In this document: one piece after another, positions 2,590 to 61,429 of the stretch
How the letters are laid out: each line of letters starts with the position of its first letter
Numbering within the stretch: position 1 is the first letter of the stretch
Assembly (NCBI GenBank): GCA_964437495.1
Contig: CAYTGV010000009.1
Location: 6,983 to 70,982 of the forward strand
Length of the DNA stretch: 64,000 nucleotides
Reading direction: 5' to 3'
From: an uncultured Planctomycetia bacterium
GTDB taxonomy: Bacteria > Omnitrophota > Gorgyraeia > B26-G9
Position numbers and translations under genes: made by a program
The notes under the pieces: model-generated
Seen by the model: only the letters and a program-made list of their open reading frames with translations
The model's database searches: none
Told to the model about the DNA's origin: nothing

Positions 2590-2667
2590 CGGGGCGTGGC
2601 GCAGTTTGGCTAGCGCGCTTGAATGGGGTTCAAGAGGTCGGTGGTTCGAGTCCACTCGCCCCGACCA
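2590..2667 (+). tRNA. tRNA-Pro (anticodon GGG)
   Basis: Cloverleaf folded by hand. Acceptor CGGGGCG/CGCCCCG (7 bp), U8, D-stem GCGC/GCGC, anticodon stem CUUGA/UCAAG with loop AU-GGG-GU, T-stem GGUGG/CCACU with loop UUCGAGU, discriminator A, encoded CCA. Confidence 0.8.
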
Positions 2668-2721
2668 TTATTGCAAGAATTTAAGGCGGTTGCAAACCGG
2701 AAAGAAAATTTAAAAAACAAT

Positions 2722-3126
2722 ATGAGCGATTCTGAAAGAAGAAATTTCGTACGCATTAATGCTAACTTTGTTGTAAGTTATTATGTGTATCCTGGGCATG
2801 TTAACCGAACTGATATGACGCTTACGAGAAATGTCAGTGTGGGAGGAATTTGTTTTACAACTGATAAGCATTTTCCACCGGGTACAATTCTACATATTAC
2901 CTTAAGACTGCCGAAAGTAAAAAATTTGGTTGAAATCCTGGGAGAAGTTATGTATGTTAAGCAAGAGACAAATAAAAAACTTCTTTTCGATATTGGTGTT
3001 AAATTTGTGCAGTGTAAGGATGATGACCTGCATATAATTGATAAGATAATAAGTGTCTGCGCAAGTTCAGAGACTAAACTGGATATGATTTACAAAATTA
3101 AAAAAAATGAAGATAAAAAAAATTAA
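2722..3126 (+). CDS. PilZ-domain protein (c-di-GMP receptor)
   Basis: RRNFVRI (RxxxR) followed by NVSVGGICF (D/NxSxGG) PilZ motifs. The tracked ORF started at 2623 inside the tRNA, so I trimmed to the first ATG downstream (MSDSERRNF...). Confidence 0.6.
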   Translation: MSDSERRNFVRINANFVVSYYVYPGHVNRTDMTLTRNVSVGGICFTTDKHFPPGTILHITLRLPKVKNLVEILGEVMYVKQETNKKLLFDIGVKFVQCKDDDLHIIDKIISVCASSETKLDMIYKIKKNEDKKN

Positions 3127-4408
3127 TTTAGGACTTATTGGTTTTGGGACTATTGGTTCAGGTGTCATAAGCGTATTGCAGAAAAAATCTGCTTTACTTG
3201 AAAATAAGCTGGGAGTAAAAATCAGATTAAAAAGGGTTTGCGAAGTTAATCCCGTGCTTGTAAGAAAACTGAAATCAAAAAAAGTCGATATATGCAAAAA
3301 TGCGGATAAAATCATTGAAGATCCGGATATTGACATAGTCATAGAGCTTATGGGAGGAATTCATCCAGCAAAGGAATATATACTCAAAGCCCTGCGTAAT
3401 AAGAAATATGTAATAACCGCTAATAAAGCACTGCTTGCAGAAGAAGGTGAGGAGATATTCAAAACTGCTAAAGCCAATGGAGTTGATGTTTATTTTGAGG
3501 CAAGTGTTGGCGGAGGCATCCCCATAATTAGAAGCCTGAGAGAGGGACTGATTGCCAATAAGATTGAAAGCATTTATGGTATTATTAACGGAACTAGTAA
3601 TTATATTCTAAGCCGAATGTCAGAATGCGCAGTTGAATTTAAAAGCGCGCTTATTGAGGCGCAAAAAAAAGGCTATGCTGAAAAAAATCCCCATTTTGAT
3701 ATAAGCGGTATTGATTGTGCTCACAAAATTGCGATACTTGCTAGAATTTGTTTCAATCAGAGCGTTAATTTTAAGGATATTTATATCGAGGGCATAAATA
3801 ATATTGAATTAAGTGATCTTAATTATGCCGAAGACCTTGGTTTTTGCGTGAAATTACTGGCAATAGCTAAAAGGGTACCCCACGGATTACAAATCAGAGT
3901 GCATCCGTGTTTAGTGCCTAAAGGTCATTTGCTTGCTAATGTAAAAGGTGTCTATAATGCCGTGTTTATCAAAGCGGATTTAATCGGCAGGGCCCTGCTT
4001 CAGGGCGAGGGAGCCGGAGCATTACCTACGGCCAGCGCGGTGGTAGGAGATATAATTTCAATAGCACAGAAGATTCCGCAGAAAAACCAGATTGATTTCC
4101 TTAATATTAAAGACAGGAAGATAAGTGAAAAAATAATTTCTGTCGATGAGCTGTTAACCAGATATTATTTTCGTTTTACTGCTTTGGATAAACCGGAGGT
4201 TCTGTCTAAAATTTCAAGCATTCTAGGTAAATTTAAAATAAGTATCTATAGTGTTATTCAAAAAGGCAGGCAACAATCACAGGCTGTTCCAATTGTAATG
4301 ATGACACATGAGGCCAGGGAAAAGGATATTCAAAGTGCCCTGGCACAGATAAATAGATTACCTTTTATAAAGAAAAAGACAGTAGCTATACGGGTTGAAA
4401 GGATATAG
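3107..4408 (+). CDS. hom: Homoserine dehydrogenase with C-terminal ACT domain
   Basis: [16 protein letters not shown]-binding N-terminus. 433 aa. ACT-like C-terminal ~80 aa. Sits next to thrC. Confidence 0.85.
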
Positions 4409-4413
4409 ATATA

Positions 4414-5487
4414 ATGAACTCTAATTGGCAGGGATTGATAGAAAAATATAGAGAGTTTCTACCGGTAACAGAAATTACTCCTGTAATTACCTTGCTTGAA
4501 GGAAATACGCCTTTAATATATGCTAAAAAACTTAGTGCAATTGTCGGAACTGATATTTCCATATATATTAAATATGAAGGCCTGAATCCGACCGGTTCGT
4601 TTAAAGACCGCGGTATGACTATGGCGATAACAAAGGCTAAAGAAGTAGGTGCTCAAGCAGTAATGTGTGCATCTACTGGAAACACATCTGCATCTGCGGC
4701 AGCATATAGTGCCAAGGCTGATTTAAAGTGTATTGTTTTGATACCTAAAGGATCCATTGCTTTAGGCAAGCTGGCTCAGTCACTTATTCATGGTGCTCAT
4801 GTCCTGGCAGTTGATGGAAATTTTGATCAGGCACTTGAACTGGTCAGGGAAATCACAGATAGCTATCCTATTACACTGGTCAATTCGCTGAATCCTTTTA
4901 GAATCGAAGGGCAAAAAACTGCAGCTTTTGAGGTCTGTGACACACTAGGCAAGGCTCCGGATTTTTTGGCTATCCCGGTTGGCAATGCGGGAAATATTAC
5001 TGCTTACTGGAAGGGTTTTAATGAGTATTTTCAAAAGACCAAGATATCTTCTCTGCCTAAAATACTTGGCTTTCAGGCCGCAGGATCAGCTCCGATAGTA
5101 TATGGAAAAATAATTAAGGATCCAAAGACAATTGCTACGGCAATTAAGATCGGTAATCCGGCAAGCTGGAAAAAAGCGGAACAGGCTCGTGATGATTCTG
5201 GCGGTTTAATTGATATGGTTAGTGATGATGAGATTTTAAAGGCTTATTTACTTTTAGCTCAAACCGAAGGTATTTTTGTGGAGCCAGCTTCCGCGGCATC
5301 AGTAGCTGGGGTTTTAAAACTGGCGGATTCAGGTTATTTCAAGAATACAGGTCAGGTTACTCTGGTTTGTGTTGTAACAGGACATGGGTTAAAGGATCCT
5401 GATCGGGCGATAAAATGTGTCCAAGAGCCGCAGGTCATTGCCCCAACAATAGAGTCTGTACTGGAGAAAGCAGGAATAAATAAATGA
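4414..5487 (+). CDS. thrC: Threonine synthase
   Basis: PLP-lysine motif GSFKDRGMT. 357 aa. Fold-type II PLP enzyme signature [10 protein letters not shown]. Confidence 0.9.
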
Positions 5488-6698
5488 AAAAAGAAATAAA
5501 ATATATTGTAATTGTGCCGGATGGTATGGCTGACAATTCCTTGGCAGAATTCGGCGGCAAAACTCCTTTAGCAGTAGCCAGAACTCCGAACATGGATTTT
5601 ATGGCTGTGAACGGTAAAATCGGGTTATCTTCTTTTATTCCGCAGGGAATGACGCCGGGAAGTGATGTGGCTAATCTGGCTATTTTCGGTTATGATCCAA
5701 AAAAGTACTTTTCTGGAAGAGCGTCTTTTGAGGCCACAAATTTAGGCATAAAAATCAAGGAGGGTGAAATCGCTTTTCGCTGTAATTTCATTACAGAAGA
5801 AAACGATATTCTTATAGATTATAGTGCTGGGCATATTAAAACAAAAGAGGCGCATGTCTTGATCAAAGTTTTAAATAATAGGTTGGGAAATGATATTTTT
5901 AGATTCTATCCGGGAACAAGCTATAGGCATATATTGGTAATAAAGGATCCAAACCACGCTTATGAGGCGCTGAAATGTTTTCCACCGCATGATATTATGG
6001 GTAAAAGCGTAGCTGAGCACTTGCCGCATTTAAAAGCTGATGATAAATTGCTCATTCTGCTTAAGCAGGCAAAGGAGGTCCTGGATGAACATGAAGTTAA
6101 TATGGTACGCAGAGATTTAAGTGAAAATCCGGCAAATATGATCTGGCTATGGGGACAGGGAAAAAAACATGACCTTCCCTTTTTTAAAAAAAAATATGGG
6201 GCAGGCGGCAGTGTAATTTCTGCGGTTGATTTGATCAAGGGAATAGGAAAATCTATAGGGTTAATGCCGATTGATGTTCCGGGTGCAACCGGATATTATG
6301 ATACAGATTATGCTGCTAAGGCAAAATATGCCTTAATGAGCCTGGAGCGGGAAAATTTTGTTTTTATTCATGTTGAAGCAACTGACGAGGCTGGGCATAA
6401 TGGTGATGCTAGAGCTAAAATAATTGCGATTGAGAACATAGACAGATTGATCATTGGAAAAATCCTTGAAGAATATAAGGATAGAGACGATTTTCGGATC
6501 CTGGTATTGCCTGATCATCCTACACCGGTAGCATTAAAAACACATACAAGTGATCCTGTATGCTTTTTAATGTATGGACACGGAGTTGCGAAAGATGAAT
6601 TTTTATGGTATAATGAATTAGAGGCTGGGAAAAGCGATTTTAGGTTTAAAAATGGCTTTGAGCTTATGGATTGGTTTATGGGAAGGGATAGCTTTTAA
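5484..6698 (+). CDS. Cofactor-independent phosphoglycerate mutase, archaeal-type (ApgM family) homolog; by context a candidate non-orthologous homoserine kinase
   Basis: 404 aa. N-terminus [10 protein letters not shown] and C-terminal metal-binding region [12 protein letters not shown]...PDHPTP, typical of ApgM/metalloenzyme-superfamily mutases. Translationally coupled to thrC. Confidence 0.75.
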
Positions 6699-6826
6699 AA
6701 AATTATAAAAAATATTATACATATTATTTTCAAAATACGCATTCATTAGTCCCGTCCAATCCGCATAAAAAGTAGCAAGCCTAATTATTCACTTTCTAAC
6801 TCATTACGTTACAGTATATTAGAGAT

Positions 6827-6855
6827 TTGACTTAATTGATGTATTGTGATATACT
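6827..6855 (+). promoter_or_regulatory. Sigma70-like promoter (TTGACT-17 nt-TATACT) for the riboswitch-giant gene transcript
   Basis: Near-consensus -35 and -10 hexamers with a 17-nt spacer, read directly. About 80 nt upstream of the aptamer. Confidence 0.35.
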
Positions 6856-6929
6856 TAATGTAGCATTTTTAAAAGCATTTAATTAGTTTATAGTTATATC
6901 CGAAAATCCGTGAATAACGGAACTGCTAA

Positions 6930-7017
6930 ATTTAGCAGGGGCAACTCTAAGGGAAATCTTGGGGACGCAAAGCTACGGGTCTAAAGCATGTGCAAAGATC
7001 GCCGGGCGTACCGACAA
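6930..7017 (+). promoter_or_regulatory. c-di-GMP-I (GEMM) riboswitch aptamer
   Basis: CAGGGGCAACUCUAAGG-GAAA-UCUUGGGGACGCAAAGCUACGGGUCUAAAGC...GCCGGGCGUACCGAC. Nearly co-linear with V. cholerae Vc2 (CAGGGCAAACC...GAAA...GGGACGCAAAGCCUCCGGCCUAAACC...GCGGGGUUACCGAUGG). Its P2-like stem CUAAGG/UCUUGG is capped by a GNRA GAAA tetraloop. It is a GC-rich island inside an AT-rich 520-nt leader. Confidence 0.55.
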
Positions 7018-7097
7018 CGACTTTACACGCTATTGATAGCCGGGCTACCGAGATATAAGCAGTTCGGCTTTTATATTATAAGGAGGAAAGGAGGAAC

Positions 7098-7169
7098 ATG
7101 AGAAAACCTAAAAAAACATTGCACTTATTTATATTTTATACATTCTTAAAAGTTCAGTGTATGCGTTAG
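7098..7169 (+). CDS. Small leader ORF (23 aa, MRKPKKTLHLFIFYTFLKVQCMR) with a tandem Shine-Dalgarno
   Basis: AAGGAGGAAAGGAGG ends 4 nt before the ATG. Located between the riboswitch and the giant gene. Below the ORF-track size cut-off. Confidence 0.3.
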   Translation: MRKPKKTLHLFIFYTFLKVQCMR

Positions 7170-7219
7170 ATATCATTGTTTTATAACTATTTTATTTAAA
7201 TGTTTGAGAGGAGGCAGTT

Positions 7220-10200
7220 ATGTTTAATAGTATCCGCAGTTATACATATATTGTATTAGTAAGTTTTTTAGTAAACGCGTTGACTTTGGGCAATGCATTT
7301 GCATTGGATCTGGAGGCATGGCAAGACATGCTCATGTCTGATGAGGTCATCCAGGGTGTATTCGGAGGCGTAATCAGCTCTCAGAGTGAGTCTGGAGAAA
7401 TGGACACAGCAGTTGCTCCGGCACCTCGCGTGATCGAGCAGTCAAATGGCGATATAGCCATAAGGTTTAGTGATTCCGCACAAGCTAGTGTTTCCACAAC
7501 CACAGAAGGCCTTACAAAAGTAACATATTCAATGAGTGGCGCTAGAGTAAAAGTAAAGGATCTGGAAACTAATGAGGAATTTGAGTTTCAGTATGAGCTT
7601 GAGGGTTCTGTAGTTAAACTGGTTAACTCAAGCGGAGCGGTTGTGCGTCAGGAAACCTATAATAATTTTGGTCAGCTTTTGACAACTAAAGCGCAGGGCA
7701 CAAATACAAATGTGTATTCTTCCGATGGATTAAATACACTTGTTAAATCTATTGACCAGTGGGGCAATGAAACAATCTATGATGACGAGAGCCGTCCTGA
7801 TTTTGCGCAATATATAGAGGTTGACGGTACAGTAGTTGTTTTTAGAAATTATACCTTTGACAACATTGGAATACTTGAAAGCATCGTAGATGAAAACGGT
7901 AATAGCATTACTTTTCTGGCTGACGGAATAAGAGTTGATGAGATAAGAAACTTTGCCGGTACACTTACTAGTTCTTATCAATATGATGACGTCTCAGGTA
8001 ATCTTATAAGCGTTACAGATCATGTGTCTGATTCAATTACGATAGTTGATGGCGGTCAGTATACCCAGACTTATGATATTGTTCCGGTTTTAGATGATAA
8101 CAATAATCCAGTGCTTGATGCAGGCAATGAACCTGTGACAGAATTGGTTTTAAAGGGAACTTATAATTATGATGTAGCCGGGAATGTGTCTGCTATTACC
8201 AATATTGGTGAAGAGGGCTGTGTTACCGGATGGACAGATTATGATGAGTTCGGCCGAATATCCGGAACATATAACCATGAAGGTGCATTGGTACAATCTT
8301 ATATGTATAATGATCATGGTTTTTTACAGCAAACTATGAGCTTAGGCGATGCTCAGACTGTGGTGTCGGTTACGAAGTTTGACCTTAAAGGCCGTCCTAT
8401 GGAAGTTTGGCAGATCGGCAACGGGGGGAATAAAGTAAAAATTCAGGAATATGTCTATAAGGAAAATGGACTCCTTGATACTACTTTCTCATTAGGAATT
8501 CTTAGAGGTACGGATGAAACAAATGAGACAACTTTTAATAAGCCTATAGACACAAATGGAAACCTTGTCACAGACGGCAGATTTACTTACTTTACAACAT
8601 CAACGACTGAGTATGATAAAAAAGGTAGGCCATCGACAGTATATTCAATAGTGCGAAATGACAATGGGGATTATATCTCCGGCTATGATGATAACGGCGA
8701 TGTGATTACAACAGCTGATTCTACTCAGGCATTGCTTGAAAAACAGCAGTCTTACAGCTATGACAAAAGAGGATTTCTTTCTAAAACAACCAGCTATGGC
8801 TTTAACAACCGCGCGACTTCAACAACACAATTTGACCGCTATGGCAGACCTGAGAAGTCTTTTAATGCTCAAGGTGAGCAAACGCAGGAATATGTATATA
8901 ATCTTGATGGTTTTCTTGTCCAGACAAAAAATTTCGGCGAAAATGGTGTGCAAACTGGATATACTAATTACGATGCCAAGGGAAAACCAACAGACGTATA
9001 TAATCATCTAGACACTCTTACCCAAAAATACGTTTACGATGAAAACGGCTTAATGGTTATGAGTTTAAATCTTAACGGTACTGATGGTGTTAATTCTGAA
9101 ATAATATCAACAATGTCTGATGTAGAATTAATCGCAGCTATGTGGGATGATAGTTTTAGCGCTGAAGTATTAGCGGGTATCGGTGCTTATAATGAGATAG
9201 AGGGCGATGGTATCCCGGCATTAAATGAGGCATTAATGACTGCTATTTGGGATGAAAATAATGAACATACTACAGATTTCAAAAAGAAATGCGCAATGAT
9301 GCTTATAAAGACTTTTAGTGATGGCGCAAAGGGCGGCAATCAGTATTTAATTAATGATGTCGGCAGTGCTTATCATATGCTTGGCCAGTTTCTTGAAGAA
9401 GAAGGCAATAATGAAGGAGCAGTTGCGGCTTATAAGATTCAGGCATCTGAATTTACAGGCGCGATGGCTATAGCTGATGGTGTTAGCGTTTCTGTTACAG
9501 CCTGGTCAACAGACAGACTTGTAAATATGACAGATGCCAATGGGGATCCAGTAGCAGTAAATACTGCTGTTGTAACCGGATATACCATTTTTGGCGGAGA
9601 CTCAAAACCAATATCCTCTTATCAATGCTATGATGATGGGGTAAATGGTCTGCAGGTTACCAAGGTACAGGATTATGATTACTCCTATGAAGCAACAAAG
9701 AAAATTATCGTAGGTTATGATACAGATAATAAACCAATATATGAAAAAATAACCTTTACACAATTTTCTAACTTTGTTAGAAAAACTATTAATTACGGTG
9801 ATTATGAAGATACAAATGCAAATGGTACTGTAGGCGATGCCGGTGATGTTCAGGTAACAACAGGATTTACAGTATTTGATAACTACGGCAGACAGCTTGA
9901 AACCTATAATGAAGATGGCAATGTTGTTCAAAAATATTCTTATTCAAAGTCAGGATTTTTGAATTTTACTTACTCTTACGGTAAAGACAAGGCTCTTACC
10001 GGAACAACTGTTTTTGACAATTACTCTAGACCAATTGCCAGTTTTAATGCATACGGAAAAGCAACCAGGATACCGGCTGACCTTATCGCTGCATTAGCTG
10101 ACGGTCTTAGCATAGCAGATATTGAAAATCCGGAATGGCAGCCATTTTTAAAAGGACTGACTCAGACCTTTGAATACGGAACAGACGGCCTACTGGCAAC

Positions 10201-13200
10201 CAGTAAGTCCTGGGGAGAAGCAGTAGTGGTCGATGTCAGTGATTTAAGCGGTTTTGCTGAGGCCCTGGGCAGTGTTAAAGGTGATGAGAACTATGAAGTT
10301 GAGTTTGATTTCAACGAAGATGGCGAAATTAATCAGGCTGATATGGATATTTTAGAGGAAGATTTTACTGGTTCTGAAAATATGGTAAATCAGTTCATTA
10401 ACCTTACTGCAGAAAAATCTGATTTAAAAGATTTCGCTAATACTTTTGAATCAAAGGTACTATATAAGGCAACACAAACCGGATATACTGTATATGACAA
10501 ATACGGAAAAGCATCAGAGGTTTATAATTCTGAGCCTATTATTGTTGATGGAGTTACAGTAGCAGACGGTGTTTTAAATCAGAAATATGTTTACAATGAA
10601 AGAGGCTTCATGACCAGATCCGAGTCATATGGGATCAATATGGATGAATACGGAAATGTGCAAATGCAGGAAGATATCCCTGAGGCCTTACTGACTGGTT
10701 ATACCTTGTTTGATGCCGGTTCAAAGCCTACGGAAACCTATTCAGTTTATAATAGTCAGGAACTTGACGATCAAGGTAATCCTTCTATTGATGTAATGTC
10801 TAAAGTACAGGATTATACATATGAAGACGGTTTTCTGATCCAAACAAACAATTATGCCAGAAACGGCGCAGATGCAGGTTATACAACATTTGATAAATAC
10901 GGACGCCAAGAGGCATCATATAATGAAAATGAAGAGCCCCAGAAAACATCAACATATCAGTATTCTAAACAGGGATTTCTTACACAGACAAACAGCTATG
11001 GTTTAAATGGCGCCTATCTTGGAAAAACATTATTTAACAAAAAAAGCAGACCAATTGAATCCTACAACATGACGGGATCAAAAAATACGGAAAAGGGGCT
11101 GACCCAGAAATTTGTATATAATGATTATGGGTTTTTGACAAACAGCATAAGTTATGGAGAAGACCAGATTTTAACCGGACAGACATTTTATAACGGTTAT
11201 GGAAAAGCAATGTATAGCTCTAATGATGTGGGAATTACCAATTCAGCCTATGTATATGATTCAGCTGGATTTCTTGATCACACTCTGGCTCTGTCTTTTG
11301 AAGTAGGCGCAGGGCCTGATGAGGCAACGCATAATAACTTAAATGATTCAGAAGATACATTAAACACTCAGGTGCCTGAGAGCGGTTATTATGTAATCAC
11401 TGGCTATACAGTCTTCGGTGATACATCCAAGCCTGAGGCTGCTTATCAATGCTGGGGATGGACAGGCGATAATCTGCCGGCATACGGCGATGGTGCTAAA
11501 GTACAGGAATACAACTATACAGATGGTTTTCTTACAAGCACTTCAAATTACGGTAAGGATGAAACATTTATAGGTACAACTGTATTTGATAAATACGGAC
11601 GCCAGGAGGCATCATATAATGAAGTTGATGTTGATGGAGACGGCTTAGGTGAGCTTACGACAAAATTCAAATATTCAAAACAGGGTTTTATGAATACATC
11701 CTACAATTATGGCGCAAAAGGTTCTCTTGTTGGAACTACAACTTTCAATAGCTTGGGTAGACCGGAACAAAGCATTAACCAAAGAAAAGCGGTTACTCAA
11801 ACCTTCCATTACAATGAATTTACTGGAGCATTGGATGAAAGTTATTCCTGGGGTGAACCGACAGAGGTTGACGGTGTATCTACTCCAACCTTAACCGGAA
11901 CAACTGAATATGACACCTGGGGAAAAGCACAGACTCAGTTTAATTCCGAAGGCAGCATTGTTGCTAAATATGACTATGATGTGCATGGATTTATGACCCG
12001 CGCGTTTTCGTTCAGCGGCGGTACTGCTACTGATGTAGGAGTATGTACAGGATTTACAAATTATAACGCAGCCGGAAGACCGGAAGGGGCATATTCGGTA
12101 TTTAATCCGACAACTGCGAGCGGCGACTTAATGGGTAGTTGGTACGATGATTATTTCTATCTCGGGGTTGATGAGAATACCATTGGAGTTACAAAGGTAC
12201 AAGATTTCATCTATAACACAGAGGCTGAAGTTGGCGGAGATATCTTGGGGTATATCGGAACTTCTGATACCGGATTTTTGACAATGACAGTCAGTTATGG
12301 TGATAATTACAATGCGGATAACCCATCTGAATCTTTTATGGGATATACGACATTCAATAGATACGGACAACAGGATTATTCCTATAATGAACTAAATGAA
12401 CAGACAACCAAATTTAATTATTCAAGCTCAGGGTTTTTAAGTGAAACCTATAACTATGGTATAGACAAAACATTGACAGGAAAAACTGTTTTCAATGCTA
12501 CGGGAAGACCGGAAGCCTCATATAATGAGAAAGGCGCTTTACTGCAGACTTTCGAATATGTTGGCGGATTTCTTACAGCCAGTACAAGCTATGGTGATCC
12601 TGGAGATTTAGAAGTAGGCGGAATAACAGGAACTACTTCTTATGATATATACGGCAAACAAGACCAATCGCTCAATGCGGAGGGCACCCTTGTAGGTACA
12701 TTTGAATACTCAGTAAACGGTTTTATGACCAAATCCAATACCTGGGGTTATGGATTGGATAATACTACCGGAGAAACTGGCTCTACGATTACTGGCTTTA
12801 CAAATTACGATAACAAGGTCAGACCTGAAAACAGTTATGCTGTATATGAAAGTTGGCTTGGCTACAATGAATCGCTTTCTCAGGTGTTTTCATATGACAA
12901 CGATGGAGAACAAACAGGGTTTGTAACCGGCGCTCAGACATATGTTGTCAATAATGACCATAATTTTGGAACCGATAATATTGCCAATGATATTGATACT
13001 GGAGAGGTATTGCTATCAGGAACTGTCGAATATAACCACTATGGCAGACCAGAACAGACATACAATAAAGAAGGCGCAATAGTCTCAAAGAATATTTATA
13101 GTTCCAATGGTTTTATTACCAAGACTGATAACTATGGTGAGGATGGAAAAAAAGTCGGGTCTCTGTATTTTAGCGATGTTGGCAGGCCTCTTTATGCAAC

Positions 13201-14104
13201 CAATCATTCTGGTGGTGTTACAACAGAATATGTTTACAATAACGCTGGATTCTTGAATCAGACAATCGGATATATCGGCGGATCGATCAATGAAGAAACC
13301 GGAGATATCGAAGGAGTTATGAGCTCATATACAACATTTGATGTCTATTCTAAAGCTCAGGAAACCTTTCAATTGTGGACAATGAGTGAATCATCTGTTA
13401 ACTCGGAATACTATCAATTTGATGAAAATGGTACGGCTAACTATACTATAAACGGTGATGGATCTATCAGCGATGGCGGATTGACCTCAGTGAATCAGAA
13501 TGCTGATATCAGTCACTACAACGCTTTTGGATCGCTATTACAGACTGATAATAAAGGCCGACAGGGAAGCACTGTCAGTTCAACTATGTATGACTCTTTT
13601 TCTAAGCCGACATCTATCTGGAATGATAAAGGTTCGCTTGTTCAGGTTTACCATTATTCCGCACAGGGATTCCTGGATTACTCTATCAGCTATGCTACGA
13701 TGAAGAGCTATAATGATAGAGGAAACCCGGTTGATGATGGTGACTGGGATACAACAACAGAAACCTCAATAACGTTCTTTAACACGTATGGTCAGCAGAC
13801 AAATGGCTATGTTCTTAGCAATGACAGCAGCAGCGGCCAAGAAGGTTGGGACCTGGTTAACTATGTCCAGAATATTGACAATCAAACAGGCCTGGAATTG
13901 GGCGCAAAGCAGAGCGAGTATAAATATGATAATAACGGCTTCTTGTCCCAGACCAAGAACTATCAGGACAAACAGTATATTGGTTATACAACATTCGATC
14001 TAAGCGGAAGACAAGATGAATCATTTAACCAATCAGGTACATTGACCACCACTTACTTATATGATTTAAACGGCTTCTTGAACAAAAGCGCTTCGCATGG
14101 TTAA
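7220..14104 (+). CDS. Giant secreted repeat protein (2,294 aa) built from ~25 divergent YD-like repeats; likely surface/adhesin-type protein
   Basis: RBS GAGAGGAGG. N-terminal signal peptide (IVLVSFLVNALTLGNAFA). ~38-40-aa periodic unit [YxYxxxGF(L/M)xxTxxYG...GxTx(F/Y)DxxGRPxxSYNxxG] recurring along almost the whole length, with a non-repeat insert at ~9100-9560. Confidence 0.85.
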   Translation: MFNSIRSYTYIVLVSFLVNALTLGNAFALDLEAWQDMLMSDEVIQGVFGGVISSQSESGEMDTAVAPAPRVIEQSNGDIAIRFSDSAQASVSTTTEGLTKVTYSMSGARVKVKDLETNEEFEFQYELEGSVVKLVNSSGAVVRQETYNNFGQLLTTKAQGTNTNVYSSDGLNTLVKSIDQWGNETIYDDESRPDFAQYIEVDGTVVVFRNYTFDNIGILESIVDENGNSITFLADGIRVDEIRNFAGTLTSSYQYDDVSGNLISVTDHVSDSITIVDGGQYTQTYDIVPVLDDNNNPVLDAGNEPVTELVLKGTYNYDVAGNVSAITNIGEEGCVTGWTDYDEFGRISGTYNHEGALVQSYMYNDHGFLQQTMSLGDAQTVVSVTKFDLKGRPMEVWQIGNGGNKVKIQEYVYKENGLLDTTFSLGILRGTDETNETTFNKPIDTNGNLVTDGRFTYFTTSTTEYDKKGRPSTVYSIVRNDNGDYISGYDDNGDVITTADSTQALLEKQQSYSYDKRGFLSKTTSYGFNNRATSTTQFDRYGRPEKSFNAQGEQTQEYVYNLDGFLVQTKNFGENGVQTGYTNYDAKGKPTDVYNHLDTLTQKYVYDENGLMVMSLNLNGTDGVNSEIISTMSDVELIAAMWDDSFSAEVLAGIGAYNEIEGDGIPALNEALMTAIWDENNEHTTDFKKKCAMMLIKTFSDGAKGGNQYLINDVGSAYHMLGQFLEEEGNNEGAVAAYKIQASEFTGAMAIADGVSVSVTAWSTDRLVNMTDANGDPVAVNTAVVTGYTIFGGDSKPISSYQCYDDGVNGLQVTKVQDYDYSYEATKKIIVGYDTDNKPIYEKITFTQFSNFVRKTINYGDYEDTNANGTVGDAGDVQVTTGFTVFDNYGRQLETYNEDGNVVQKYSYSKSGFLNFTYSYGKDKALTGTTVFDNYSRPIASFNAYGKATRIPADLIAALADGLSIADIENPEWQPFLKGLTQTFEYGTDGLLATSKSWGEAVVVDVSDLSGFAEALGSVKGDENYEVEFDFNEDGEINQADMDILEEDFTGSENMVNQFINLTAEKSDLKDFANTFESKVLYKATQTGYTVYDKYGKASEVYNSEPIIVDGVTVADGVLNQKYVYNERGFMTRSESYGINMDEYGNVQMQEDIPEALLTGYTLFDAGSKPTETYSVYNSQELDDQGNPSIDVMSKVQDYTYEDGFLIQTNNYARNGADAGYTTFDKYGRQEASYNENEEPQKTSTYQYSKQGFLTQTNSYGLNGAYLGKTLFNKKSRPIESYNMTGSKNTEKGLTQKFVYNDYGFLTNSISYGEDQILTGQTFYNGYGKAMYSSNDVGITNSAYVYDSAGFLDHTLALSFEVGAGPDEATHNNLNDSEDTLNTQVPESGYYVITGYTVFGDTSKPEAAYQCWGWTGDNLPAYGDGAKVQEYNYTDGFLTSTSNYGKDETFIGTTVFDKYGRQEASYNEVDVDGDGLGELTTKFKYSKQGFMNTSYNYGAKGSLVGTTTFNSLGRPEQSINQRKAVTQTFHYNEFTGALDESYSWGEPTEVDGVSTPTLTGTTEYDTWGKAQTQFNSEGSIVAKYDYDVHGFMTRAFSFSGGTATDVGVCTGFTNYNAAGRPEGAYSVFNPTTASGDLMGSWYDDYFYLGVDENTIGVTKVQDFIYNTEAEVGGDILGYIGTSDTGFLTMTVSYGDNYNADNPSESFMGYTTFNRYGQQDYSYNELNEQTTKFNYSSSGFLSETYNYGIDKTLTGKTVFNATGRPEASYNEKGALLQTFEYVGGFLTASTSYGDPGDLEVGGITGTTSYDIYGKQDQSLNAEGTLVGTFEYSVNGFMTKSNTWGYGLDNTTGETGSTITGFTNYDNKVRPENSYAVYESWLGYNESLSQVFSYDNDGEQTGFVTGAQTYVVNNDHNFGTDNIANDIDTGEVLLSGTVEYNHYGRPEQTYNKEGAIVSKNIYSSNGFITKTDNYGEDGKKVGSLYFSDVGRPLYATNHSGGVTTEYVYNNAGFLNQTIGYIGGSINEETGDIEGVMSSYTTFDVYSKAQETFQLWTMSESSVNSEYYQFDENGTANYTINGDGSISDGGLTSVNQNADISHYNAFGSLLQTDNKGRQGSTVSSTMYDSFSKPTSIWNDKGSLVQVYHYSAQGFLDYSISYATMKSYNDRGNPVDDGDWDTTTETSITFFNTYGQQTNGYVLSNDSSSGQEGWDLVNYVQNIDNQTGLELGAKQSEYKYDNNGFLSQTKNYQDKQYIGYTTFDLSGRQDESFNQSGTLTTTYLYDLNGFLNKSASHG

Positions 14105-14402: not shown

Positions 14403-15245
14403 ATGCTAATTTTACAGGTAGTTATGAATTTTAATTTTAGGGATATTTTTTTAGAAAAAAAAAGCCGCAGTAAATTGTTTTTGATCTGTGGGCCTTGTGT
14501 GATTGAATCCGAAAAAATTGCTTTAGAACACGCGGCAATTTTAAAGGATATTTGCACTAAGCTTAATATTCTTTTTATTTTTAAATCCAGCTTTGACAAG
14601 GCTAATCGAACCTCAATTAATTCCTTCCGGGGGCCCGGGATAAAAAAGGGGTTGAGTATTCTCAAGAAAATCAGAACTCAAATCCGTGTGCCTGTTACCA
14701 GCGATGTCCATCAGGTAAGCGAAGTAGCGGCGGCTAAATCTGTTCTGGATATTATACAAATTCCGGCATTACTCTCAAGGCAAACCGATTTATTAGTAGC
14801 TGCGGCTAAAAGCAAAAAAATTGTAAATGTAAAAAAGGGGCAGTTCATGGCTCCGGATGATATGAAAAATGTAATAAAAAAGATTGAATCATCGGGAAAT
14901 AAAAAAATCATTATTACTGAGCGGGGCACAAGCTTCGGCTATCATAATCTGGTTAGCGACATGCGTTCAATAGCGATTATGAACAATTTCGGGTATCCGG
15001 TTGTATTTGACGCAACTCATAGTGTACAGCTGCCAAGTGCAGGTAATGGTATTTCCAGCGGTCAGAGAGAATTTGCGCCGGTTTTGAGCCTGAGTGCTGT
15101 TGCCGCAGGCGCACAGGGATTATTTCTTGAAGTACACAAATCACCTGAAAAAGCCCTATGTGACGGTCCAAATATGCTAACTCCACATGAACTTGAGAGG
15201 CTGCTGGTAAAAGCAATTAAAATACGGGAGATTGTCAATGATTGA
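14403..15245 (+). CDS. kdsA: 2-dehydro-3-deoxyphosphooctonate aldolase (KDO-8-P synthase); the start may be the in-frame ATG at 14424
   Basis: LFLICGPCVIESE...VPVTSDVH...DATHSVQLP motifs of KdsA. Confidence 0.9.
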   Translation: MLILQVVMNFNFRDIFLEKKSRSKLFLICGPCVIESEKIALEHAAILKDICTKLNILFIFKSSFDKANRTSINSFRGPGIKKGLSILKKIRTQIRVPVTSDVHQVSEVAAAKSVLDIIQIPALLSRQTDLLVAAAKSKKIVNVKKGQFMAPDDMKNVIKKIESSGNKKIIITERGTSFGYHNLVSDMRSIAIMNNFGYPVVFDATHSVQLPSAGNGISSGQREFAPVLSLSAVAAGAQGLFLEVHKSPEKALCDGPNMLTPHELERLLVKAIKIREIVND

Positions 15246-16206
15246 GAAAAATTCTTTAAAAATTGCTAAAAATGTCCTGCGCACGGAAGCAAAAGCAATA
15301 ATAGATCTACTGCCTAGTATAAATAAGGATTTTGAAAAAGCAGTTGAGGCAATTGCCAAATGTAGGGGCATGGTAGTTATTACCGGAATGGGGAAACCCG
15401 GACTTATTGGGGGCAAGATCTCTGCTACCCTGGCAAGCCTCGGGGTGCCAAGCCATTTTTTGCATCCTGCCGAGGCAGTCCATGGAGACCTTGGACGTGT
15501 TACCAGTGATGATCTAGTTATCGCAATTTCAAATAGCGGCAAAACAGAAGAAATAACAAGGCTACTGCCTTTAATAAAAAAAATAGGGGCAAAATTAATC
15601 GCCTTGACTGGCAATCTGAAATCTCCTTTGGCAAAATACAGCGATATTGTACTTAATGTCGGCGTAAAAAAAGAGGCATGTCCTTTTAATCTAGCGCCAA
15701 CGGCAAGCACTACAGCAACTTTAGCTATGGGAGATGCTCTTGCCGTAGCTGCCTTAATAAAAAGAGGGTTTAAGGTTGAAGATTATGCCTTTTATCATCC
15801 CGGAGGAAGCCTGGGTAAAAAGCTGCTTAAAGTTAAAGATCTTATGCGCAAAGGCAAACAGAGCCCGATTGTAAATAAAAAGACTACATTGAAAACAGTT
15901 TTGATCCAAATAACTAAGTCCCGCGCCGGCTCTGCAACTGTTGTTAATGATAAAAAACAGCTCTGCGGCATTTTTACAGACGGAGACCTGCGGCGTCATA
16001 TTGAAAACGATGAGCATATATTAAGCCGTCATGTCAATGATGTTATGACGAAAAACCCTGTCTCAATTAATAGGGAACATCTAGCTATTGAAGCTCTTAA
16101 AATTTTAAAAGACAAAAGGATCGATGAGATACCTGTAGTAGATGATAAAATGCGTCCGGTGGGTCTTTTAGATGTGCAGGATTTACTGAAAGCAGGAATT
16201 GTATGA
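15232..16206 (+). CDS. kdsD: Arabinose-5-phosphate isomerase (SIS domain + tandem CBS)
   Basis: SIS motif VVITGMGKPG. C-terminal CBS pair. Coupled to kdsA and kdsC. Confidence 0.9.
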   Translation: MSMIEKNSLKIAKNVLRTEAKAIIDLLPSINKDFEKAVEAIAKCRGMVVITGMGKPGLIGGKISATLASLGVPSHFLHPAEAVHGDLGRVTSDDLVIAISNSGKTEEITRLLPLIKKIGAKLIALTGNLKSPLAKYSDIVLNVGVKKEACPFNLAPTASTTATLAMGDALAVAALIKRGFKVEDYAFYHPGGSLGKKLLKVKDLMRKGKQSPIVNKKTTLKTVLIQITKSRAGSATVVNDKKQLCGIFTDGDLRRHIENDEHILSRHVNDVMTKNPVSINREHLAIEALKILKDKRIDEIPVVDDKMRPVGLLDVQDLLKAGIV

Positions 16207-16730
16207 ATGCATCTATCAAGGATAAGGCAAAAAAAATAAAGGTTGTTATTAGTGATGTTGACGGAGTGCTTACCAACGGCTTAATTGCTTACGGCAATTA
16301 TAAGGACGAATACAGAGAATTTAATGTGCATGATGGATTTGGATTTATACTGCTAAAAAAAACAGGGATAAAAACCGCTATTATAACAAGTAAATCCTCT
16401 AATGCACTAAGCCGGCGGGCAAAAGAGCTCTCGGTTAATATGCTTTGTCAAAACGCTAAGAAAAAATTACCTTTTTTTAAGAAAGTTCTGAAAAAATTAA
16501 AATTAAAACCTGAAGATGCCTGTTATATAGGAGATGATTTGCTTGACTTGGCAACGCTTAAGGCTGCCGGTTTTGCAGTAAGTCTACCGAATGCAAGTAA
16601 GGATGTTAAAAAATGCGCGGATTATATAACGGAAAAAAACGCAGGATGCGGAGCGTTCAGAGAGCTTGTTGAAATTATCTTAAAATCCCAGAATAAATGG
16701 ACAGGGATTGTTGAATATTATAGCAGTTAA
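16203..16730 (+). CDS. kdsC: KDO-8-phosphate phosphatase (HAD family)
   Basis: VVISDVDGVLTNG HAD motif I. 175 aa. Confidence 0.85.
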   Translation: MNASIKDKAKKIKVVISDVDGVLTNGLIAYGNYKDEYREFNVHDGFGFILLKKTGIKTAIITSKSSNALSRRAKELSVNMLCQNAKKKLPFFKKVLKKLKLKPEDACYIGDDLLDLATLKAAGFAVSLPNASKDVKKCADYITEKNAGCGAFRELVEIILKSQNKWTGIVEYYSS

Positions 16731-16756
16731 TCAAGATTTTAGGAATAGGATATATA

Positions 16757-59824: not shown

Positions 59825-59830
59825 TATAGT

Positions 59831-61411: not shown

Positions 61412-61429
61412 ACATAGGCAAGGAGCATA

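Follow-up and report, generated by a model that had tools for sequence, protein, structure and literature searches.

A predicted c-di-GMP-I riboswitch with two competing 3' strands upstream of a giant gene of Candidatus Omnitrophota

The type example of the c-di-GMP-I (GEMM-I) riboswitches is reportedly Vc2 of Vibrio cholerae, which is said to have been described by Sudarsan and colleagues in 2008, with crystal structures following in 2009. No member of Candidatus Omnitrophota is in culture, and these bacteria stand out for their very large genes, the function of which is unknown. Riboswitches of the c-di-GMP-I class can also occur in tandem: one review counts 347 doublets and 12 triplets, among them a triplet in B. 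thuringiensis (PMC9481103). The Bc1 riboswitch of the Bacillus cereus group has a long expression platform with two terminators (PMC11218506), and the yxjA guanine riboswitch of B. subtilis, which acts as an OFF switch, passes through a 'central helix' intermediate (PMC9756952).

Here we describe an element from a stretch of Omnitrophota DNA of 64,000 nucleotides, hereafter the window. Judged from its sequence, the leader of a giant gene in this window very probably carries a c-di-GMP-I riboswitch. The element belongs to a familiar riboswitch class, of which it is a structurally new and unusually built form: two 3' halves compete for one strand, 6971-6981. Literature searches for a c-di-GMP riboswitch in Omnitrophota (Omnitrophica), or for nested aptamers, returned no description.

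Class, extent and genomic setting

A preliminary description of this DNA had placed a c-di-GMP-I riboswitch at 6921-7080 and named the Rfam model RF01051 as the way to check it. When both strands of the whole 64-kb window were searched with 4227 families, RF01051 matched at 6930-7052 of the forward strand with 50.0 bits, above the gathering score of 35 (E = 8.8e-07). This is the sole riboswitch match in the window, and RF01051 is the best-scoring member of its clan there, RF03167 and the other clan models being suppressed as lower-scoring. The motifs that had been quoted are found in the sequence at the places given, and so are the landmarks, namely the GAAA tetraloop (6953-6956), the GACGCAAAGC junction (6964-6973) and the CUAAA receptor strand (6981-6985). 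The start at 6921 has to be moved, since the 5' strand of P1 puts it at about 6894; the full element, about 6894-7079, then consists of P1, a pair of inserted hairpins, P2 with its GAAA cap, a long P3 and a predicted intrinsic terminator (Table 1). The '520-nt leader' is correct as an intergenic distance (6699-7219) but not as a transcribed leader, which measures about 360 nt from the predicted promoter.

Table 1. Features of the riboswitch, its operon and related genes in the window.
Feature	Position	Strand	Remarks
Predicted sigma-70-type promoter	6827-6855	+	TTGACT, 17-nt spacer with TG, TATACT
P1 5' strand UUAUAUC, then junction CGAAAA	6894-6900, 6901-6906	+	family-wide 5' motif AUC-CGAAAA
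Inserted hairpin HP-a, UCCG(U)-loop-(A)CGGA	6907-6921	+	between P1 and ligand pocket; in the minimum free energy (MFE) fold
Inserted hairpin HP-b, CUGCUA-loop-UAGCAG	6923-6938	+	ends 1 nt before the G20-equivalent; in the MFE fold
Aptamer core, 5' part	6939-6970	+	RF01051 alignment
P3 5' strand AGCUACGGGUC, receptor 5' half UAAA and GC	6971-6987	+	able to pair with copy 1 or copy 2
Copy 1 GAUCGCCGGGCGUACCGA and tail CAACGA	6997-7020 (strand proper 6997-7014)	+	near-duplicate of the aptamer 3' half
3' strand of the P3 extension helix (Ext) and receptor 3' half UAUU	7021-7034	+	Ext pairs with 6985-6997
Copy 2 GAUAGCCGGGCUACCGA	7035-7051	+	P3 3' strand; G83-equivalent G7039, C92-equivalent C7048
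P1 3' strand GAUAUAA	7052-7058	+	inside the terminator loop
Predicted terminator 3' strand GCAGUUCGGCU; U-tract UUUAUAUUAU	7059-7069; 7070-7079	+	folding and covariation
Tandem Shine-Dalgarno GGAGG	7082-7086, 7090-7094	+	seen in the sequence; kept in all five orthologues
Small ORF, 23 codons, MRKPKKTLHLFIFYTFLKVQCMR	7098-7169	+	seen in the sequence
Giant gene, 2,294 aa, putative regulated gene	7220-14104	+	N-terminal signal-peptide-like segment; about 18-21 YD/RHS-like repeats
PilZ	2623-3126		context gene
MshEN ATPase	53935-55644		context gene
REC-GGDEF	61430-62359		context gene; GGDEF motif reads GGDDF

The riboswitch is found upstream of homologues of the same giant gene in five of five orthologous Omnitrophota loci, all of which pass RF01051. 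L001-L004 score 47.9-56.7 bits, and L005, which carries extra inserted hairpins, scores 36.5 bits. The ligand contacts, which we take to be G20, A47 and C92 in Vc2 numbering, correspond in the RF01051 alignment to G6940, A6969 and C7048. Across 39 family sequences position 6969 is A without exception and position 7048 is C in 37, and the contact positions read G, A, C as in c-di-GMP binders, not the A20 of cGAMP variants. In the core, G6941-C6942 pairs with G6967-C6968, and C6966 is the C44-equivalent. The sequence of P2 (6945-6952 with 6957-6964) varies among the orthologues with its pairing kept. The predicted tetraloop receptor, C-UAAA-G (6981-6986) with C-UAUU-G (7030-7035), aligns to the receptor columns of RF01051 and departs from the canonical 11-nt receptor in its 5' half, where A replaces G. 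What the sequences show directly is family membership by covariance model, conservation, covariation of the P3 extension and the terminator, and energetics.

The promoter claimed earlier was recovered by a consensus scan, with 10 of 12 consensus matches plus an extended -10 TG, and the predicted transcription start lies near 6862. Both hexamers are kept in L001-L004, and the promoter of L005 is similar. P1 is predicted de novo with p = 0.93 and is part of the unconstrained minimum free energy fold (z = -3.7; none of 200 shuffles folds as well). Its length is 7 bp both in the window and in L002, L001 and L121 having 6 bp each, and in L001 the pairing is kept through a change from U-A to U-G. 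The segment 6894-6906 is invariant in five of five close orthologues, and the motif AUC-CGAAAA is found across the family. P1 itself is AU-rich and has no two-sided covariation; it is convincing only in the clade to which the window belongs and in a few others, and weak or unclear elsewhere. The stem of HP-a covaries across the family by inspection (UCCG:CGGA, UCCAC:GUGGA, CCCAG:CUGGG). In HP-b the fifth pair changes from U-A to C-G among the orthologues, and elsewhere in the family other stems occur, such as CACCA:UGGUG and CCGCCA:UGGCGG.

The tandem Shine-Dalgarno sequence and the small ORF of the preliminary description both exist, the ORF with corrected coordinates. Intact versions of 23-42 aa are found in the window, L001, L002 and L004, and L003 has a truncated one. 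RNAalifold gives no support for a conserved RNA structure around the small ORF (-1.08 kcal/mol, no covariation). A perfect 9-nt inverted repeat, 6890-6898 with 7182-7190, is by inspection not kept in L001 and was treated as chance in AT-rich DNA.

The giant secreted repeat protein claimed for this locus could be confirmed as an ORF with a signal-peptide-like segment and YD/RHS-like repeat motifs, 18 of which follow the pattern Y-x-Y-[DNS]-x-x-G-F-[LM]. Against RHS_repeat (PF05593, threshold 22 bits) it scores 18.9 bits, which is sub-threshold, while its homologues P0040, P0041 and P0052 pass with 61.6, 22.1 and 22.2 bits. Searches of Pfam at 1e-3, of NCBIfam and of PDB sequences at E <= 0.001 gave no matches, so that the YD/RHS-like identity of the protein comes from its homologues only; neither an Rhs core nor a toxin domain was found. 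The protein family has just 16 representatives among 1.84 billion. Genes for PilZ, an MshEN ATPase and a REC-GGDEF protein, which had been named as context, are all present in the window, and only the GGDEF motif is not as named.

The two-copy module is found in at least 39 distinct sequences, either upstream of giant YD/RHS-like proteins or at the head of a second operon type, in which genes for a 160-aa protein and for a PilZ protein follow the riboswitch, together with huge ORFs. Relatives retrieved through the 160-aa gene comprise five at 72.6-77.6 bits and a sixth, L132, at 38.4 bits. Because members with extra junction hairpins (L005 and L132) barely pass RF01051 and other members flip to RF03167 (one of these, L128, reaching 28 bits only), the subfamily is under-called or misplaced by standard annotation, and this includes the 3' strand that is reported. 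All two-copy members may belong to one clade, in which case the co-occurrence of features may be due to descent rather than to function.

One 5' strand and two 3' strands

A duplicated 3' box had been seen downstream of the proposed aptamer. The duplication is real, with 91% identity between 6997-7007 and 7035-7045, but the second box is not something added downstream of the aptamer: it probably supplies the 3' strand of the aptamer itself and, at the same time, the 5' strand of the terminator. The aptamer had also been drawn as closed by the first box (copy 1), and here the evidence favours copy 2 instead, with copy 1 inside an extended P3. The window holds one RF01051 match and one 5' half, and not the two full aptamers that define a tandem riboswitch.

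From alignment scores and pairing, copy 2 is more likely than copy 1 to be the canonical 3' strand of the aptamer. The best RF01051 alignments use copy 2 in the window and in all orthologues. The scores in the window are a near tie (50.0 bits with copy 2, against 49.0 with copy 1 once copy 2 is cut off); in L002, the sole orthologue so compared, copy 2 gives 56.7 bits and copy 1, when it alone is available, 50.2. The partner of the P1 5' strand follows copy 2 only. Pairing to the P3 5' strand is 99.5% standard for copy 2 and 95% for copy 1, where the changes are wobble-compatible only. Further, the C92-equivalent is C in 37 of 39 sequences in copy 2 but in 27 of 39 in copy 1, which has U in the other 12. 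This change from C to U tracks a change from G to A across a local hairpin (GC 20, AU 7, GU 5, other 7). In the fold that we prefer, copy 1 contributes two parts to the P3 extension, its inner stem (6999-7001 with 7018-7020) and its apical hairpin (7003-7005 with 7011-7013). Pair 7005:7011 of the apical hairpin covaries, and pair 7000:7019 of the inner stem changes without loss of pairing.

Only the P3 5' strand is more conserved than copy 1. P2 and the inserted hairpins drift across the family while the P3 5' strand stays frozen: the 21-mer 6967-6987 is identical in 36 of the 39 distinct family sequences, the other three differing at 6984 only. The identical ones include 14 of the 15 loci retrieved through protein homology alone, the exception being L005 (UACAGC). 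Family members with an altered P3 5' strand were sought with a covariance-model search of 123 loci, a scan of viral contigs with the copy-1 motif and 13 more protein-guided loci, and no variation was found at any paired position. The lone viral-contig match to the copy-1 motif, L124, is a chance match in GC-rich coding DNA. The strand is an invariant side of both its pairings, that with copy 1 (H_A) and that with copy 2 (H_B).

The presumed ligand-binding fold, conformer B, would be a five-way junction of P1, HP-a, HP-b, P2 and the long P3, in which the P3 5' strand 6971-6981 would pair with 7035-7046 of copy 2. Conformer B is under selection. In the 39 sequences nine of its pairs are altered on both sides, none of 500 shuffles reaches its covariation score, and 84.6% of the cells are paired against 18-37% in slid controls. 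It should be noted that such pair counts on alignment A4 lean towards B, because A4 was fitted to structure B. Within Ext, pairs are altered on both sides, for example from A-U to U-A at 6994:7024.

The terminator stem joins 7038-7048, within copy 2, to 7059-7069 and is followed by the U-tract. We assessed it by explicit folding and covariation; a simple terminator scan had missed the hairpin because its loop has 10 nt and the scan is limited to 8 nt. Alone the hairpin folds with -12.1 kcal/mol (z = -2.0). In 18 sequences the stem is 94% paired with three pairs altered on both sides, and the stem of the window has one A-C mismatch. The terminator strand is complementary to copy 2 at 10 of 11 positions in the window, and at 10 of 11 or more in 26 of 29 family members. 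It is likely that this predicted terminator is the expression platform. The ligand-free terminator state is more stable than conformer B in 21 of 25 relatives, by a median of 5.8 kcal/mol, while in the window the two are isoenergetic (+0.5 kcal/mol) and the equilibrium probability of the terminator is 0.02-0.14.

Two other pairings were considered as antiterminators and rejected. One would have made a second antiterminator out of copy 1 and the terminator 3' strand. Compared by eye, the substitutions fit copy 2 instead, and copy 1 has mismatches wherever the terminator strand varies. Pairing of CCGAA in the leader (6900-6904) with UUCGG (7063-7067) comprises 5 bp only and is lost in L001.

Proposed mechanism and rival readings

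The reading that we prefer, with moderate confidence, is a transcriptional c-di-GMP-I ON switch at 6894-7079 with copy 2 as the sensor strand. It would control an operon of the small ORF and the gene for the 2,294-aa secreted protein with YD/RHS-like repeats. In the absence of ligand, the terminator strand would displace the P3 5' strand from copy 2, and transcription would stop at about 7075-7079. With c-di-GMP bound, P1, P3 and C7048 would be held in the aptamer, the terminator could not nucleate and transcription would read through into the giant gene. Ligand binding, the direction of control and the role of copy 1 are what we infer here. The ON direction, which we consider reasonably probable, is the most likely one because the terminator state is the more stable in 21 of 25 relatives, so that ligand would be needed to hold B.

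Copy 1 is transcribed first and could pair with the same P3 5' strand. Rather than sensing the ligand, it would more likely be a transient or OFF-state partner of that strand in an exchange among four strands, a role that we assign to it tentatively. About 10 nt of transcription separate the completion of conformer B from the emergence of the terminator strand, and binding of c-di-GMP by the Vc2 aptamer is slow; the ON mechanism is therefore kinetically demanding, which keeps sensing by a copy-1 aptamer in play.

More speculative, and on the doubtful side, is the idea that one 5' half alternating between two 3' halves is a conserved exchange device made of the P3 5' strand, copy 1, copy 2 and the terminator 3' strand. 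Copy 1 might then serve as a short-lived aptamer-like fold, pre-organising the pocket or catching c-di-GMP before the real 3' strand is made, or alternatively as a built-in decoy that sets the basal level of termination. Such a design would account for the lack of change in a 21-nt strand among at least 39 diverged riboswitches. Should both folds bind ligand, one RNA could have opposite outputs, according to the moment at which it captures c-di-GMP. A limited literature search gave no description of such a design with two 3' halves for any riboswitch class.

The roles could also be reversed, with copy 1 as the sensor of an OFF switch. A compact aptamer, 6930-7015, would form first, bind c-di-GMP and lock the P3 5' strand, so that copy 2 would be available for pairing with 7059-7069 as the terminator. 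In the ligand-free case the P3 extension, together with copy 2, would invade, conformer B would be an antiterminator only, and high c-di-GMP would shut the gene off. OFF-acting GEMM-I riboswitches exist, for instance Cd1 of C. difficile, and the copy-1 aptamer alone passes RF01051 both in the window (49.0 bits, with copy 2 at 50.0) and in L002 (50.2 bits). Copy 1 is made about 40 nt earlier, which would give a decision window of normal length, its conservation is second only to that of the P3 5' strand, and in the window B is stable without ligand (H_B probability 0.7-0.9, terminator at most 0.14). We nevertheless regard this reading as quite unlikely. Copy 1 has no P1 partner, has an additional nucleotide, G7008, beside the pocket, and has U at the C92-equivalent in 12 of 39 sequences, tracking the local hairpin. 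H_A reaches an equilibrium probability of about 0.5 at most, and only for transcripts ending at 7008-7012. As the terminator is already favoured without ligand in 21 of 25 relatives, little would be left to switch, and copy 2 retains features that an antiterminator does not need: its GCUGCCGAAG tail, the G83-equivalent and P1.

Unlikely too, though a somewhat stronger contender, is an ordinary ON riboswitch whose copy 1 takes no part in switching. Copy 1 would then be the remnant of an internal duplication, kept only for building the inner stem and the apical hairpin in a long P3, where it might also make a tertiary contact. Every nucleotide of copy 1 has a place in the covarying P3 extension, the combination of copy-1 pairing with the terminator is never the minimum-energy state, H_A is favoured only fleetingly, and other GEMM-I relatives (L011, L058) have long P3 insertions without copy 1. 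A remnant does not readily explain why copy 1 has invariant bases in its loop and at unpaired positions (C7002, G7006 and A7010, wherever the position exists; G7008 in all but one sequence), or why copy-1 pairs never flip when changes from UA to AU are common in Ext. Only purines occur at position 7005, which is what a pair with U6974 requires, and the P3 5' strand is frozen family-wide while other helices drift. A terminator overlapping the P3 3' strand occurs only alongside copy 1, in 26 of the 29 members with two copies and in 0-2 of 72 single-copy relatives, an association that shared descent could explain. Finally, the ligand might be 3'3'-cGAMP or an unknown one, as in some GEMM-I variants: L131, L134 and L135 score best against RF03167 with 60-62 bits (gathering score 59), and two extra junction hairpins adjoin the pocket. 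This is very improbable for the window, where no other clan member scores as well as RF01051, the nucleotide at the specificity position is G (G6940) and not A, A6969 and C7048 are canonical, and c-di-GMP receptors (PilZ, MshEN) are encoded nearby. According to PMC9481103, G at the specificity position marks c-di-GMP binders and A marks c-AMP-GMP binders.

Significance and comparison with known systems

In our preferred reading c-di-GMP would directly control the giant gene, and the giant secreted proteins would be part of a c-di-GMP-controlled surface or attachment programme. A riboswitch of the c-di-GMP class before giant Omnitrophota genes, in two operon types of which one includes a PilZ receptor, would offer a direct experimental handle on the timing of their production. 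The nested duplicate of the 3' half, together with the frozen shared strand, would be a compact natural system for studying cotranscriptional strand exchange.

In general there is a close resemblance to RF01051 and Vc2: the score is above gathering, the GAAA-capped P2 has a predicted docking site on the P3 receptor, the GACGCAAAG junction is shared, the G20, A47 and C92 contacts and the C44 and G83 equivalents are present, and the element lies upstream of a gene for a surface or secreted protein. However, the window element has two hairpins between the CGAAAA junction and G20, which make a five-way junction, and its P3 has a 47-nt extension (6988-7034) that holds a near-copy of its own aptamer 3' half. 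The 5' half of its receptor is UAAA and not UAAG, and the P3 5' strand of the two-copy family is frozen instead of covarying.

As in tandem c-di-GMP-I riboswitches, aptamer sequence is repeated in one leader, often before genes for adhesins or surface proteins. Tandems are complete, independent aptamers, each ligand-competent, whereas here one 5' half faces two nested, exclusive 3' halves; because these are mutually exclusive, the window element can have at most one pocket at a time. A term search of the review on tandems (PMC9481103) found no nested, overlapping or shared-aptamer arrangement.

With yxjA (PMC9756952) the element shares a proposed competition between strands during transcription, in which ligand stabilises an aptamer helix against invasion. 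Unlike in yxjA, the competing strand is a literal duplicate of the aptamer 3' half and the terminator directly overlaps the aptamer 3' strand. Bc1 (PMC11218506) likewise combines a GEMM-I aptamer with an elaborate terminator-based platform and suspected alternative structures. There it is the terminator that is duplicated, in another phylum and before other target genes, while in the Omnitrophota element it is a strand of the aptamer.

A c-di-GMP-I aptamer with two 3' halves

At 6921-7080 the preliminary description had proposed a c-di-GMP-I riboswitch, and the motifs it quoted agree with the sequence. The search with RF01051 that it suggested was run and gives a match at 6930-7052 on the forward strand with 50.0 bits (gathering score 35; E = 8.8e-07). 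When the whole 64-kb window is scanned with all 4227 Rfam families, two matches exceed the gathering score, this one and a tRNA, and a permissive scan of 6700-7300 found nothing credible beyond RF01051. At the level of sequence, each feature that can be tested agrees with membership in c-di-GMP-I. As Rfam detects the match, the riboswitch call is routine: the class is already known, and what we rate as new is the structural variant, which is associated with giant Omnitrophota genes.

Features of the riboswitch and neighbouring genes (positions in the window)
Feature	Position	Strand	Remark
PilZ gene	2623-3126		named in the preliminary description, present
P1	UUAUAUC 6894-6900 with GAUAUAA 7052-7058	+	complementarity
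AUC-CGAAAA motif	6898-6906	+	family 5' motif
Contact positions	G6940, A6969, C within ACCGA	+	expected places in RF01051 alignment
GAAA tetraloop	6953-6956	+	expected place in RF01051 alignment
Junction GACGCAAAG		+	expected place in RF01051 alignment
Receptor strand CUAAA		+	expected place in RF01051 alignment
Copy 1, GAUCGCCGGGCGUACCGA	6997-7014	+	box aligned in the preliminary description
Copy 2, GAUAGCCGGGCUACCGA	7035-7051	+	P3-closing strand in best RF01051 alignment
MshEN-T2SSE ATPase	53935-55644		named in the preliminary description, present
REC-GGDEF protein	61430-62359		GGDDF motif

The duplicated 3' box had also been recognised, and the direct repeat (6997-7007 and 7035-7045) is indeed 91% identical. 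The aptamer had been closed with copy 1, but the best Rfam alignment closes P3 with copy 2 instead, and 41 nucleotides including copy 1 become an insertion in the P3 loop. When the search is ended at 7022, without copy 2, the same 5' half and copy 1 give 49.0 bits, which is above the threshold and nearly equal to the 50.0 bits with copy 2. Since either copy closes the same 5' half, the element has a single 5' half and two 3' halves that exclude each other.

Several features are evidence for copy 2, not copy 1, as the 3' half of the sensor. Copy 2 is chosen in all best Rfam alignments, in the window and in five orthologous loci of the giant gene (L001-L005), and in L002 it gives 56.7 bits versus 50.2 for copy 1 alone, despite the cost of the long insertion. 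Only copy 2 has a P1 partner; the tail of copy 1 has no complement to the P1 5' strand. Among 39 distinct sequences of the two-copy family the C92-equivalent is C in 37 for copy 2 and in 27 for copy 1, and copy 1 has an extra base, G7008, beside the pocket.

Relatives and putative target genes

Orthologues were sought in species-representative genomes with the N-terminal 700 aa of the giant protein. Four loci (L001-L004), all from Candidatus Omnitrophota MAGs, are 70-80% identical, and a fifth (L005), from an NCBI Omnitrophica MAG, is 50% identical and has the same hom-thrC-apgM synteny. RF01051 is found upstream of the giant gene in all five (L001-L004, 47.9-56.7 bits; L005, 36.5 bits), and both copies, the spacer, and the downstream stem and U-tract are conserved. 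In the window the riboswitch and giant gene lie between housekeeping genes, hom-thrC-apgM upstream (3107-6698) and kdsA-kdsD-kdsC-lptB downstream (14403-17485). As L005 shares the upstream synteny, this position is ancestral in the lineage, not a recent insertion.

When metagenomes were scanned for the P3 5' strand and receptor alone (GCAAAGCTACGGGTCTAMAGC), at least 118 stretches matched. Among the matches listed, 76 non-redundant sequences are ordinary single-copy GEMM-I aptamers and 29 have the two-copy layout: loop, copy 1 GAUCGCCGRGCG-YAYCGAYAAC, spacer, copy 2 GCUAUGAUAGCCGAGCUGCCGAAG, loop, GCAGUUCGGCU, U-tract. The filter for these 29 used the CGAYAAC tail, whose conservation there is partly by construction; the tail is also present in a separate sample of 13 loci (L125-L137), picked by identity to a ~160-aa secreted protein alone. 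This protein lies downstream of many two-copy members and has 37 homologues, every named one from Omnitrophica/Omnitrophota. All 13 loci contain the two-copy module, with full-length matches of 77-115 bits to our own family model (R1).

Within the family there is further variation. In many members, among them L005 (3352-3414), L007, L054, L056 and L078, two more hairpins lie between the junction GAC/GGC and GCAAAG, and some members have hairpins at both junction sites. Such members are easily overlooked by annotation, as the low Rfam score of L005 illustrates. L131, L134 and L135 (about 997-1143) match RF03167 (c-di-GMP-I-GGC; 60-62 bits, gathering score 59) rather than RF01051, and despite this have the identical P3 5' strand and the two-copy module. 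RF03167 is also the best model in L128, yet with 28 bits, far under the threshold.

The proposed promoter, TTGACT-17-TATACT with an extended -10 TG (6827-6855), is present and conserved in the orthologues, and the giant ORF has 2,294 codons (7220-14104) as described. The tandem GGAGG and 23-codon ORF are likewise there, although the coordinates of the ORF had to be corrected to 7098-7169. The tandem GGAGG and the ORF (MRKPKKTLHLFIFYTFLKVQCMR) together occupy 7082-7169, between terminator and giant gene; the tandem SD is kept in all five orthologues, and the small ORF is intact (23-42 aa) in four loci and truncated in L003. A look for RNA structure in 7082-7169 found nothing convincing. The small ORF could encode a leader peptide or serve for coupling.

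The N-terminus of the giant protein is signal-peptide-like, and its sequence contains 18 Y-x-Y-[DNS]-x-x-G-F-[LM] and 21 [FY]-[DN]-x-x-[GS]-[RKQ] motifs. Sequence searches against Pfam, NCBIfam and PDB gave nothing significant; below threshold are RHS_repeat (18.9 bits, cut-off 22) and Tse5 (E = 0.37). An exhaustive HMMER search of 1.84 billion clustered representatives found only 16 relatives, of which three pass RHS_repeat (61.6, 22.1 and 22.2 bits). Repeat motifs, few relatives and these three matches point to a YD/RHS-like repeat protein that is divergent, restricted to its lineage and lacking a recognisable toxin domain. The protein ends within a repeat and its C-terminus is not toxin-like. 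A sub-threshold Dockerin_1-like (calcium-loop) match at residues ~1004-1046 recurs in the homologues P0040 and P0041.

In other Omnitrophota the same two-copy riboswitch is found upstream of a second putative target, a conserved operon (L125-L137, e.g. L125:1023-2877). It encodes the ~160-aa secreted protein (with the motifs IQALLLTQVDFALA and S[TR]GPP) and a PilZ-domain protein, followed by a protein of ~220 aa and by very large ORFs (5,354, 2,094 and 1,740 aa). Upstream, 11 of the 13 loci have a ROK-family gene.

The context genes that had been named are present, except that the REC-GGDEF protein carries GGDDF in place of GGDEF. Because of this active-site motif and a Pfam match limited to profile positions 19-98 of 161, its cyclase activity is uncertain. 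It forms a cluster (58634-62359) with a FIST-domain protein and a GAF-HisKA-HATPase kinase. Further, a tRNA at 2590-2664 (58.2 bits) covers the first 42 nt of the PilZ ORF as mechanically listed. Since the PilZ domain begins at residue 38, translation probably starts downstream of the tRNA.

Fold, predicted terminator and proposed direction of the switch

The family-wide aptamer 5' end directly adjoins GGCAAAC in compact members; in the window two hairpins (6907-6921 and 6923-6938) part it from the core, and the stems of both covary among orthologues and family. The P1 3' strand lies directly 3' of the CCGAG of copy 2, and the helix has 7 bp in L002, as in the window, but 6 bp in L001 and L121. 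For transcripts that reach 7060, de novo prediction gives P1 a probability of 0.93. It is also part of the unconstrained minimum-energy fold of 6890-7060 (-53.2 kcal/mol, z = -3.7; 0 of 200 shuffles as stable), in which a five-way junction of P1, both hairpins, P2 and the copy-2-closed P3 with its extension is complete. Many other family members have a weak or unclear P1, and we therefore regard it as likely but short of proven.

In this fold closed by copy 2 (conformer B), nine pairs of the P3 extension, inner stem and apical hairpin are changed on both sides among the 39 sequences, 84.6% of cells are paired versus 18-37% with slid partners, and the covariation score is reached by 0 of 500 shuffles; the alignment (A4) was fitted to conformer B, so these counts are somewhat biased toward it. 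Covariation in this fold is also present in a separate MAFFT alignment of 18 sequences. Judged from these substitutions, the fold containing copy 2 is under selection as a whole.

Part of copy 2 (7038-7048, AGCCGGGCUAC) is complementary to the strand at 7059-7069 (GCAGUUCGGCU), with UUUAUAUUAU next to it on the 3' side. The predicted terminator hairpin alone has -12.1 kcal/mol. Pairing in its stem is 94% across 18 aligned relatives, and three pairs differ on both sides; at the base, for example, A-U becomes C-G, and inside the stem G-U becomes G-C or A-U. Complementarity of copy 2 to the terminator strand is at least 10/11 in 26 of 29 two-copy members among the matches listed. Because the terminator 5' strand consists of the P3 3' strand and C7048, and the terminator loop contains the P1 3' strand, aptamer and terminator are mutually exclusive. 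In L003 (2790-2840) and L004 (2521-2572) a ~47-nt terminator-loop insertion with a hairpin, CUCAGGA...UCCUGAG, lies between copy 2 and the P1 and terminator 3' strands; a hairpin in this loop also occurs in several members of the 160-aa operon, in L134 the same one.

Folding of full-length leaders under constraints favours the terminator state over conformer B in 21 of 25 relatives (median -5.8 kcal/mol); in the window the difference is +0.5 kcal/mol. Without ligand the RNA would prefer the terminator and c-di-GMP would stabilise the competing aptamer, which together would make an ON switch. That c-di-GMP raises expression is our preferred reading of these models. By analogy it agrees with usual c-di-GMP biology: c-di-GMP commonly switches on adhesins and surface proteins, as in Vc1/GbpA, Bc2/Cap and the class II riboswitch before C. 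difficile pilA1.

In addition, GAACUGCU at 6920-6927 spans parts of both inserted hairpins, HP-a (3' side) and HP-b (5' side). Its perfect complement is AGCAGUUC at 7058-7065, the first half of the terminator 3' strand (inverted repeat I1). Read by eye, L002-L004 retain this complementarity, L001 has a weaker form and L079 and L006 lack it. It may be coincidental, or it may provide one clade with a further competitor for the terminator strand.

In conformer B copy 1 pairs with itself and the spacer (6999-7001/7018-7020 and 7003-7005/7011-7013). C-to-U changes at its C92-equivalent accompany G-to-A at 7005 (GC 20, AU 7, GU 5, other 7) and are therefore structural, not ligand-related. Copy 1 is also 95% complementary to the P3 5' strand (6971-6981). 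Its substitutions are all wobble-compatible (U-G/U-A 25/14, G-U/G-C, G-C/G-U), and none of its pairs flips, while the neighbouring extension helix flips freely. The unpaired bases C7002, G7006 and A7010 are invariant wherever present, and G7008 in all sequences but one. Copy 1 thus behaves as a doubly constrained strand. The P3 5' 21-mer (6967-6987) is identical in 36 of 39 sequences, the other three differing at 6984 only, and in 14 of 15 loci found purely by protein homology; P2 and the inserted hairpins, in contrast, vary widely. A strand bound to match both copies, of which copy 2 also matches the terminator strand, would be unable to drift.

Following equilibrium folding along the growing transcript, the helix of the P3 5' strand with copy 1 (H_A) reaches only about p = 0.5, at transcript ends 7008-7012; after 7012 the apical hairpin, the extension, the helix with copy 2 (H_B) and P1 succeed one another. 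The state "A plus terminator" is never the minimum-energy state, and is within about 1 kcal/mol of it in some members. A terminator overlapping P3 accompanies copy 1 in 26 of 29 two-copy members and is essentially absent in 72 parsed single-copy relatives with the same P3, both among the matches listed; common descent could also cause this association. We infer, as the least certain part of our reading, that copy 1 may pair with the P3 5' strand transiently or in the OFF state, giving a four-strand exchange. It might hold or pre-organise this strand until copy 2 is made, or reduce leaky antitermination. That copy 1 is a mere remnant of an internal duplication we find doubtful.

The timing of transcription would suit the opposite direction, an OFF switch where the copy-1 aptamer is the sensor and conformer B only an antiterminator. 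Copy 1 emerges about 40 nt before copy 2, and only about 10 nt separate the completion of conformer B from the emergence of the terminator strand; c-di-GMP binding to the Vc2 aptamer is slow. In the window, conformer B is stable without ligand and the two copies nearly tie in Rfam score. However, copy 1 lacks P1 and its C92-equivalent is variable, copy 2 retains the aptamer features, and the family-wide preference without ligand is the terminator; we consider an OFF switch improbable. As to the ligand, three relatives (L131, L134, L135) score best as the RF03167 variant, but one other than c-di-GMP is unlikely because position 20 is G in the window, by the rule quoted in PMC9481103.

Comparison with known systems

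Tandem riboswitches have two 5' halves, whereas the window element has only one, with two 3' halves, and is therefore not tandem. A review of tandem architectures describes hundreds of complete c-di-GMP-I doublets and triplets, and a term search of it did not find a nested, overlapping or shared-aptamer arrangement (PMC9481103). A literature search on c-di-GMP riboswitches in Omnitrophota found no paper linking the two. The nearest mechanistic analogue is the yxjA riboswitch, which uses cotranscriptional strand exchange (PMC9756952).
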